Of a stretch of 64,000 nt of DNA, positions 9,335-9,489 are shown in pieces. The stretch spans positions 25,606,001 to 25,670,000 of the forward strand of contig OZ024764.1 in assembly GCA_964016885.1 (NCBI GenBank). The letters run 5' to 3'. The first letter of the stretch is position 1. Each line of letters opens with the position of its first letter. The notes beneath the pieces are model-generated. The model had not been told where the DNA came from and did no database searches. It saw only the letters and a list, made by a program, of their open reading frames with translations. Source of the stretch: Eledone cirrhosa. Taxonomy: Eukaryota. The position numbers and the translations under genes are program-made.

Positions 9335-9489
9335 TTCATTATTTCTGAAGACGGCGTATATATGTGTTAGGTATGTATATTTAATCTTGATAATTTGTAT
9401 AATTTTGTATAATTTTGTACATAGATCTGTTGAATATGCATACCAATTATAACACATATATACCCTAGAAACGATCGTTAAATAATGAA
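9335..9489 (+). ncRNA. Type-I hammerhead ribozyme with 116-nt stem II
   Basis: Stem I TTCATTATTT(9335-44)/AAATAATGAA(9480-89); CTGAAGA 9345-51; stem II helices 9356-69/9450-63 (14 bp) and 9370-84/9430-44 (15 bp, two U-G wobbles); GAAA 9468-71; palindrome AACGATCGTT; GUU triplet. Confidence 0.82.

Follow-up and report, generated by a model that had tools for sequence, protein, structure and literature searches.

Penelope-like elements (PLEs) are known to carry type I hammerheads in their pLTRs, and the function of these ribozymes and the origin of the more-than-unit tandem and inverted PLE insertions are open questions. In the window, the whole 64-kb stretch of Eledone cirrhosa DNA analysed here, a hammerhead motif at 9335-9489 encloses a domain II of 116 nt. 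The explanation we favour, and consider reasonably probable, is a PLE type I hammerhead that would stay mostly uncut in capped RNA and would occasionally be cut to give an endless template. The host family is young and still intact, and with so many copies available it places the likely RNA start, the reverse transcriptase (RT) start sites and the cleavage site at base resolution.

The hammerhead motif and the insertion that carries it

The features of the motif are as follows.

9335..9344 (+), hammerhead stem I, 5' strand, containing the sequence TCA(+1)TT
9338 (+), inferred start of the capped transcript, where the 5' ends of copies cluster and are preceded by an untemplated G
9345..9351 (+), catalytic core CUGAAGA, assigned by sequence and retained across every subfamily sampled
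9352..9467 (+), domain II, 116 nt: C.A base, helix A of 14 bp, 5-nt bulge, helix B of 15 bp
9369..9376 (+), putative splice-donor-like motif, +33 from the inferred start, paired in helix B
9468..9479 (+), GAAA core (9468-9471), 2-bp stem III with palindromic loop, and GUU triplet, with the predicted cut after 9479
9480..9489 (+), hammerhead stem I, 3' strand, from sequence and constrained fold
9520..9529 (+), anti-stem I, an exact duplicate of the stem I 5' strand, predicted to capture 9480-9489

A type I descriptor scan of the 64-kb window returned this motif and its twin, and nothing else. The sequence-only reading had described a perfect stem I, an intact core and a giant stem II, and these descriptions held on recounting: stem I is Watson-Crick in 10 of 10 pairs, CUGAAGA and GAAA are intact on either side of the 116-nt domain, helix A (9356-9369/9450-9463) is Watson-Crick in 14 of 14, the bulge at 9445-9449 is 5 nt, and helix B (9370-9384/9430-9444) has 15 pairs, with U-G at 9376:9438 and 9382:9432 only. 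The repeat said to lie in the loop was found there four times as a 10-nt unit, and the apex of the domain consists of a conserved internal loop plus this repeat. A k-turn in the apical loop was dropped by eye, the loop being a symmetric 3x3. Every type I core position (C3-U4-G5-A6-N7-G8-A9, G12-A13-A14, A15.1-U16.1 and H17) is present, and a constrained fold and pair counts give three helices round the core with the open end in stem I. On this modelling the segment is a type I hammerhead motif, for which self-cleavage is predicted to occur after U9479 of the triplet GUU.

The perfect palindrome previously read as stem III does exist at 9470-9479, but a monomer can form only 2 bp of stem III there (A9471-U9478 and C9472-G9477, enclosing a 4-nt loop). 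Two copies of the palindrome cofold into a 10-bp helix of -11.8 kcal/mol; as modelled, it is a dimer stem and not the monomer stem III. Stem II is also unusual at its base, which reads upward C.A mismatch, G.U, G-C and C.C mismatch. A G10.1-C11.1 purine-pyrimidine pair closing stem II is typical of hammerheads, if not universal, and it is absent here; the C.A is found in 191 of 193 copies. Given a stem II without G10.1-C11.1 and no evident contact between loops I and II, catalysis may be very slow.

The hammerhead region is far more stable than shuffled sequence (z -6.56, with 0 of 200 shuffles equally stable). Domain II alone folds at -44.1 kcal/mol (z -7.9), compared with -28.8 kcal/mol for the opposite strand. 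The catalytic fold, at -46.9 kcal/mol, is not the minimum, the predicted ground state lying at -48.2 kcal/mol, and the computed probability of stem I pairing in context is below 1%. Loss of conserved core nucleotides from paralogues had been named as a test of the motif; the core proved intact in 191 of the 193 copies fetched, a set biased by the search patterns, and in 24 of 27 copies chosen by their 3' side alone. The cleavage base in the 193 copies varies among permitted letters only (GUU 145, GUA 46, GUC 1, UUA 1).

The surrounding insertion was resolved as follows.

5190..6942 (no strand), (TA)n microsatellite, left flank of the PLE insertion
6943..7362 (-), inverted 5'-truncated PLE arm: pLTR portion equivalent to 9258-9543 plus a tail of ~137 nt
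7131..7285 (-), identical hammerhead twin
7364..9543 (+), direct PLE arm, the terminal 2.18 kb of the element, comprising pLTR and microsatellite-rich 3' UTR; ORF and tail absent
9541..9808 (no strand), (TA)n microsatellite, right flank; the element end at 9543 is the inferred first RT start site

The sequence-only reading had overlooked the inverted copy, which is 286 nt long, 100% identical (arms 7077-7362 and 9258-9543) and placed 1.9 kb upstream of the hammerhead. The left end of the inverted arm is ambiguous by 2-3 nt against (TA)n, and the direct arm matches a full-length unit (L032:5144-7293) at 95.7%. The window insertion is a dead, 5'-truncated PLE copy in (TA)n.

Elsewhere in the window, tblastn with the 813-aa protein of the PLE gave matches only at 24007-25022, to a different family; the fragment at 23941-25022 (+) belongs to a second Hydra-clade PLE family, 34-47% identical to the 813-aa ORF. 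At 11317-11355 (+) lies a degenerate hammerhead whose domain II measures 20 nt, a short-stem type that is frequent in the E. cirrhosa genome, and a model match at 27500-27561 was judged not to be a hammerhead. Non-LTR retrotransposon ORFs with RT lie at 51370-54672 (+), 43148-45934 (-) and 37443-39625 (+), among them a frame of 1,100 aa with endonuclease, RT and zf-RVT domains. Minisatellites occupy 15432-20545 (53-base unit), 21462-23121 (72), 48314-50100 (44) and 54910-55395 (72); the units at 21462, 48314 and 54910 look related and occur in both orientations.

The host element and the history of its long domain II

A 271-nt query against the 3.0-Gb genome gave 1,083 candidates, of which 40 were scored; all 40 were 100% identical and were arranged as inverted pairs and as tandems 6.5-6.9 kb apart. 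Between tandem hammerhead copies lies an 830-codon frame (813 aa from the ATG), and 54 of the 54 ORF copies scored were full-length, stop-free and 99-100% identical. The ORF has the motifs RDD (RT), RWR, DKT, a CxCX5C linker, CxxC and CxH, which were also matched by eye against the text of Fig. S7 of Craig et al. 2021 (PMC8557442), and YIG and downstream R motifs mark a putative GIY-YIG region at its C-terminus. A structure model built from an alignment of 64 sequences reached a pLDDT of 85, and its four best Foldseek matches were all TERT. Pfam and PDB sequence searches with the 813-aa ORF gave nothing useful, a profile search gave one weak retron RT match only, and Pfam GIY-YIG matched weakly in 3 of the 64 aligned members and not in the 813-aa protein itself. 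Residues 477-573 of the ORF at L032:1024-3465, between RT thumb and linker, form a disordered stretch of ~100 Asn/Thr/Lys-rich residues with pLDDT below 50; N-rich inserts resembling it have been reported in rotifer PLEs, in the literature text available.

The unit is 6.56 kb, including a microsatellite-rich 3' UTR of 3.5 kb, and shows pLTRs, partial tandems, an inverted 5'-truncated arm and a tail on one end. Of the copies examined, 203 of 213 enter the TA run at one of three fixed places. An exact-pattern count of the 5' core puts pLTR hammerhead copies at 9,011 at least, and the GUU 3' core gave 6,780 by the same kind of count. By its motifs the host is almost certainly a very young Hydra-clade PLE with a telomerase-like RT and a GIY-YIG-like region at the C-terminus. 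A Naiad/Chlamys PLE, considered from an N-terminal motif, was ruled out as the RT is N-terminal, the motif is DKT and not DKA, and a hammerhead is present. A non-LTR retrozyme was ruled out too, the tandem unit being 6.56 kb and RT-coding and not a short non-coding repeat.

Comparison was made with the accessible text of the relevant reports. The PLE type I hammerheads of Cervera and de la Pena 2014 (PMC4209133) share the CUGANGA/GAAA core, type I topology and pLTR location, and likewise the weak stem III with palindromic loop (for which a dimer model was given), head-to-head pairs and thousands of solo copies. Their helix II, however, is 6-8 bp and their stem I 4-5 bp, whereas in E. cirrhosa two helices totalling 23-29 bp make up a domain II of 99-126 nt, stem I is 10 bp and G10.1-C11.1 is absent. 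The Hydra-clade EN+ PLEs of Craig et al. have in common with the present family an RWK-type motif (RWR here), DKT, CxCX5C, CxxC and CxH, as well as the C-terminal GIY-YIG region (putative in E. cirrhosa), (TA)n targets, an inverted 5'-truncated arm, a tail on one end and a mismatch at the stem II base. The published Hydra hammerheads (PMC8557442 File S2) differ in having 3-7-bp stems, 3-10-nt loops and a domain II of ~10-25 nt; the longest domain II in that file, ~55 nt, belongs to PLE-X1_sMoe, which is not Hydra. Published Hydra units are also below about 3 kb and their tails 30-40 nt (at least 137 nt in E. cirrhosa), the ~100-aa disordered insert is unlike the elements of that report, and Hydra-1_Obim is a different family with a different hammerhead. 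Non-LTR retrozymes (PMC7229834; bioRxiv 10.64898/2026.07.22.740005) resemble the present family in having a type I hammerhead with a palindromic stem III, and in the circular RNA intermediate and PLE origin proposed for them, but are short non-coding tandem repeats (PMC7229834), whereas the E. cirrhosa family encodes an autonomous ORF and occurs in short form as inverted pairs and not as tandem arrays. By eye, the 3' ends of Naiad_Obim and Naiad_Ovul in File S5 of Craig et al. seem to contain GAAA, CUGAUGA and three pairable stems in non-standard order; these 'hammerhead-less' ends would thereby resemble a non-circularly permuted hammerhead.

The long domain II has a history within the family. 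It spans 99-126 nt in the subfamilies sampled, and three deletion copies fall in shorter classes of 12, 16 and 82-90 nt. Over 26 haplotypes chosen from 89, 93.9% of cells are paired. Pair 9356:9463 is A-U in 20 haplotypes, G.U in 2 and G-C in 4, and pair 9382:9432 is C-G in 10, U.G in 8, U-A in 3 and unpaired in 5; the C-G, U.G and U-A states among haplotypes identify the U.G at this position as an intermediate on a compensatory path. The second wobble, at 9376:9438, arose from U-A. The formal covariation test was modest, with 3 double-changed pairs versus 3.2 in shuffles, and the covariation score, from related and hand-chosen sequences, was matched by 2 of 500 shuffles. A sister family, known from two loci only (L210 and L211), has a domain II of 110 and 102 nt, scores 70 and 61 bits against the model, and has a GC-rich outer helix in place of the AU-rich one; it shares with the window hammerhead the core, the base mismatch, the apical internal-loop sequence and the GTATGT motif, and four pairs are changed on both sides (hand count). 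Taken together, these sequence comparisons support survival of domain II pairing through compensatory changes across subfamilies. The two wobbles had been read as consistent with selection on RNA of this strand. Selection on pairing is backed by the subfamily changes and the sister family; in older subfamilies both strands of domain II fold equally well, which makes the strand asymmetry of folding recent.

The suggestion that length-limited searches would miss such a motif proved correct. Rfam returned 0 matches over the 64 kb at gathering scores, and at E<=10 the hammerhead family was absent, with chance-level miRNA and sRNA matches only; this is expected from the 116-nt insert. Craig et al. 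searched bare hammerhead cores with a 7-17-nt spacer (PMC8557442, accessible text), a limit that also passes it over. A genome search with the same stem III palindrome and a 10-40-nt spacer gave 88 matches versus 3 in the control, mostly families with domain II of 20, 31-35 and 39-40 nt, and the fetched DNA contained unrelated motifs with domain II of 51-55, 53, 82, 83 and 95 nt (folding z -2.3 to -4.2). The 53-, 82-, 83- and 95-nt ones are type I motifs, each with a palindromic stem III, and are listed here.

L230:1753 (-), domain II of 95 nt
L231:7922 (+), domain II of 83 nt
L236:9101 (+), domain II of 82 nt
L234:5720 (+) and 5112 (-), domain II of 53 nt

Another 82-nt candidate (L191/L233) was dropped as ambiguous, a second core lying closer to GAAA. 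Fragments of Hydra-type ORFs occur close to the 20-nt family and to the 53-nt family. A retrozyme-like family with a 51-55-nt domain II occurs every 555 bases, in tandem and inverted, at L232:1222-3456, and at L237:1833, 8813 and 9354 the spacing is about 540 bases. A separate ribozyme class, as proposed in the sequence-only reading, is not what emerges: core, palindromic stem III and location are all those of PLE type I hammerheads, and the unrelated 51-95-nt versions in the same genome make the long domain II a recurrent variant. A literature search covering mostly open-access text found no PLE hammerhead with a stem II of ~100 nt. Since several unrelated 51-95-nt families lie in the small fetched part of the genome, PLE ribozymes are undercounted by surveys that allow a short stem II only.

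RNA start, reverse transcription and cleavage

Short copies end sharply inside the ribozyme. Among the first 100 places listed, 15 head-to-head pairs (30 places) have cores 8-17 nt apart, and in 15 of 15 both arms end inside the 5' strand of stem I, one arm being tail-less and the other tailed. At the 3' side one arm of each pair ends near 9543, and the other near 9680 (10 pairs) or 9770 (5 pairs). The match runs from A9338 into stem II in 9,011 copies, and for 2,861 of these it breaks off at 9337; one base further the loss is 226 of 6,150. A SINE-fused lineage makes up 8 of 30 sampled loci preceded by A or T, and as this is an old lineage and not a set of truncations, the hotspot share at A9338 comes down from ~32% to ~25%. 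A G precedes A9338 in 616 of 3,087 cases versus 3 of 60 at the next position (p 0.003), although some of these Gs can derive from the opposite arm; several junctions have the G on both arms, or the first 13 nt reiterated. An untemplated 5' G is an accepted mark of a reverse-transcribed cap (PMC4859970, accessible text). The copies thus point to a Pol II start at A9338. RT stalling at the hairpin was rejected as a cause of the hotspot: the stop lies beyond the whole hairpin. The sequence around A9338, TCA(+1)TT, is what we take to be initiator-like.

In the old lineage (L162, L164-L168, L187, L188, L238 and L239) a SINE-like repeat of 190 nt is joined to the element precisely at A9338, after the ORF and ahead of the hammerhead. 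A jump of the RT from the 5' end of the RNA to a SINE RNA template may have produced this fusion. The SINE-like repeat is also present in the window at ~3158-3341, 4698-4881 and 10077-10289. At L094/L103/L104, L117 and L127, the junction carries the initial 13 nt of the RNA two or three times in tandem, resembling telomerase-style reiterative copying at the 5' end.

The 3' ends mark probable RT start sites at 9543, ~9680 and ~9770. A role of the hairpin as an RT recognition signal, one of those suggested for it, does not agree with these positions: reverse transcription begins 64 and ~200 nt downstream of the cleavage site, outside the hairpin. Short copies read through the cleavage site. A base other than U stands at 9479 in 561 copies; among the 30 of them that were read, 26 belong to the GUA subfamily, 1 is GUC and 3 are junctions, 2 of these 3 being ambiguous owing to the complementarity of stem I. 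The search for a truncation hotspot at the cleavage site in these loci was negative, 27 of the 30 being GUA/GUC variants. Copies starting at the cleavage site amount to about 1% at most, a count that T-filled junctions would escape.

Folding offers an explanation for this scarcity. An RNA starting at A9338 retains 7 of the 10 stem I pairs, and its stem I probability is below 1%. With the full stem I, the probability is 0.5 until the tail with 9520-9529 emerges, whereupon the 3' strand is captured. The anti-stem is retained in older and sister families, and the catalytic fold is disfavoured in every context examined. The predicted 7-bp stem I together with the anti-stem would account for the few copies that start at the cleavage site; in these models the downstream anti-stem is predicted to switch cleavage off. 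The RNA of the element is likely to be copied back into DNA mostly uncut.

The green anole's Poseidon PLE (Frangieh et al. 2024, PMC11167929, accessible text) is similar in that internal RT starts downstream of the hammerhead define the tail, both target strands are extended, and unprocessed RNA is the main template. Its ribozyme is weak without help and needs protein, to which the predicted weak fold in E. cirrhosa may be likened. The Poseidon ORF starts inside the hammerhead, whereas the E. cirrhosa ATG lies 495 nt after the inferred start; the Poseidon evidence is biochemical, whereas that from E. cirrhosa is genomic and adds an inferred capped 5' end in stem I and the anti-stem.

Full-length arrays and the possible roles of the hairpin

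ORF-bearing copies behave differently from the short ones. The 5' side was fetched for 40 of the 54, and 39 could be parsed. A start at 9338 was seen in none of these 39, whereas 29 extend past that position (p 2e-4 for a stop rate of 25%). Capped RNA as the source of full-length copies predicts starts at 9338, so the result speaks against this simple model; strand transfer as in retroviruses, with stops at 9338 at a fixed rate, was likewise rejected, 0 of 29 passes having stopped. A lone full-length copy (L249:699-710) has its 5' end at the predicted cleavage site, for which a hand estimate of chance is ~0.06. Among 24 ORFs, differences average 1.1 bases within arrays (13 pairs) versus 9.8 between them (263 pairs), and arrays carry private variants in all their units. 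These sequences suggest that full-length arrays came from repeated copying of one circular or end-jumped monomer template; in place of a circle, jumping across a cut held together by stem I is also suggested. Cervera and de la Pena proposed such an endless template, without in vivo data in the text available. In array B, a variant common to two upstream units is missing from the 3' unit, a pattern that one RNA circle does not explain; duplication at the DNA level, gene conversion and multimers from read-through are further explanations of the arrays.

The favoured explanation would run as follows. Pol II would start at A9338, inside the hammerhead's own stem I, leaving the 5' hammerhead with 7 of 10 stem I pairs while the anti-stem at 9520-9529 holds cleavage off. 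RT would initiate internally at 9543, ~9680 or ~9770 from both nicked strands of the (TA)n target and run through the uncut ribozyme up to the cap, leaving short head-to-head pairs. Occasional cleavage, as a dimer or with the element's protein, would yield an endless circular or end-jumped template. That ORF-bearing copies derive from a monomer template without an end at 9338, most simply a cleavage-ligation circle, we regard as evenly balanced. Against it stands the possibility, real if somewhat the lesser, that the full-length tandems came from read-through multimeric RNA or DNA duplication, with the ribozyme serving only RNA turnover or translation. Only ~1% of copies begin at the cleavage site, the array B pattern fits, the anole PLE uses unprocessed RNA in vitro (PMC11167929), and self-cleavage in a 5' UTR can start cap-independent translation (PMC13725137, accessible text). 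Yet units are about nine times closer within arrays than between them and carry private variants, which would require homogenisation in each round, and none of the 39 ORF copies begins where the element's RNA is inferred to start. For the anole PLE, insertion in vitro still took place with ribozyme mutants (PMC11167929, accessible text), which counts against the favoured explanation.

The hairpin itself covers +15 to +130 of a 495-nt leader that has nine upstream ATGs before the ORF. Of 203 copies with the splice-donor-like motif (213 examined), 199 have GTATGT; in the text available on D. virilis Penelope, an intron lies 46 nt after the start. Candidate acceptors for a donor at 9371 lie at 9424 and 35 nt ahead of the ATG. 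Four runs consisting of contigs, when aligned to L032:440-1700, gave no joint at the donor-like motif or at candidate acceptors; as the contigs are not recorded as RNA, this result does not bear on splicing or expression. Tentatively, and with less than even confidence, we suggest that the long stem II is a structure-constrained insert with 5'-leader signals, its conserved apical internal loop probably a binding site for the protein of the element; its pairing would keep the core intact while the insert carries the sequestered splice-donor-like site. Only slightly less probable in our judgement is a neutral expansion without a second role, by inverted duplication of microsatellite-like sequence in loop II, that is paired only so that the core can fold. 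The helices resemble (UA)n/(UG)n, 10-nt repeats come and go in the loop (82-126 nt), PLEs routinely make inverted duplications, and domain II lengths of 20, 31-40, 51-55, 82-83 and 95 nt in unrelated families make length look freely variable. The sister family, however, swaps the outer helix yet holds length, GTATGT and the apical internal-loop sequence, and short-stem-II deletion derivatives are isolated copies among the 88 short-spacer matches and have not been amplified.

A hairpin kept as an ADAR or Dicer/Drosha duplex, with A>G changes as edits fixed by reverse transcription, is improbable. A hand count over the well-aligned helices found A>G at 10 of 18 A sites (~40 copy counts) versus T>C, in a single copy each time, at 5 of 18 T sites, an excess absent from tail and ORF controls, and some A>G changes are present in the two arms of the same insertion. 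A U-A pair stays paired after A>G, however, and is broken by U>C, so that selection alone predicts the excess; C>U wobbles are tolerated as well, at 4 of 5 C sites, hyper-edited copies were not encountered, and for the Dicer/Drosha reading there was no significant miRNA family match, Rfam scores being far below threshold. We give equally little credence to a catalytically dead ribozyme whose region is kept as internal promoter DNA (+1 to +130) or as a protein-binding structure. The C.A at the stem II base and the disfavoured catalytic fold agree with it, as does the internal position of PLE promoters in the pLTR (literature, accessible text). Such a reading is opposed by the retention of core nucleotides and dimer palindrome, by a cleavage base that varies among permitted letters only, and by compensatory pairing as an RNA-level signal; moreover, base mismatches occur in published PLE hammerheads too, U.U in most Hydra and C.A in PLE-X1_cBra (PMC8557442, accessible text).

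What is new relative to the known type I hammerhead of PLE pLTRs is the 99-126-nt domain II, its kept pairing, the record of starts at 9338 and the anti-stem. A wider reading, which is speculative and for now unlikely, is that there exists a hidden set of PLE hammerheads whose 50-125-nt stem II inserts are regulatory modules, and that start, hairpin and anti-stem together form a switch. Were this so, capped uncut RNA would give rise to the short inverted copies, and cut, circularised RNA to rolling-circle tandem full-length copies; the ~9,000 copies in E. cirrhosa would then be the first in vivo record of a hammerhead deciding the kind of insertion that a PLE makes.
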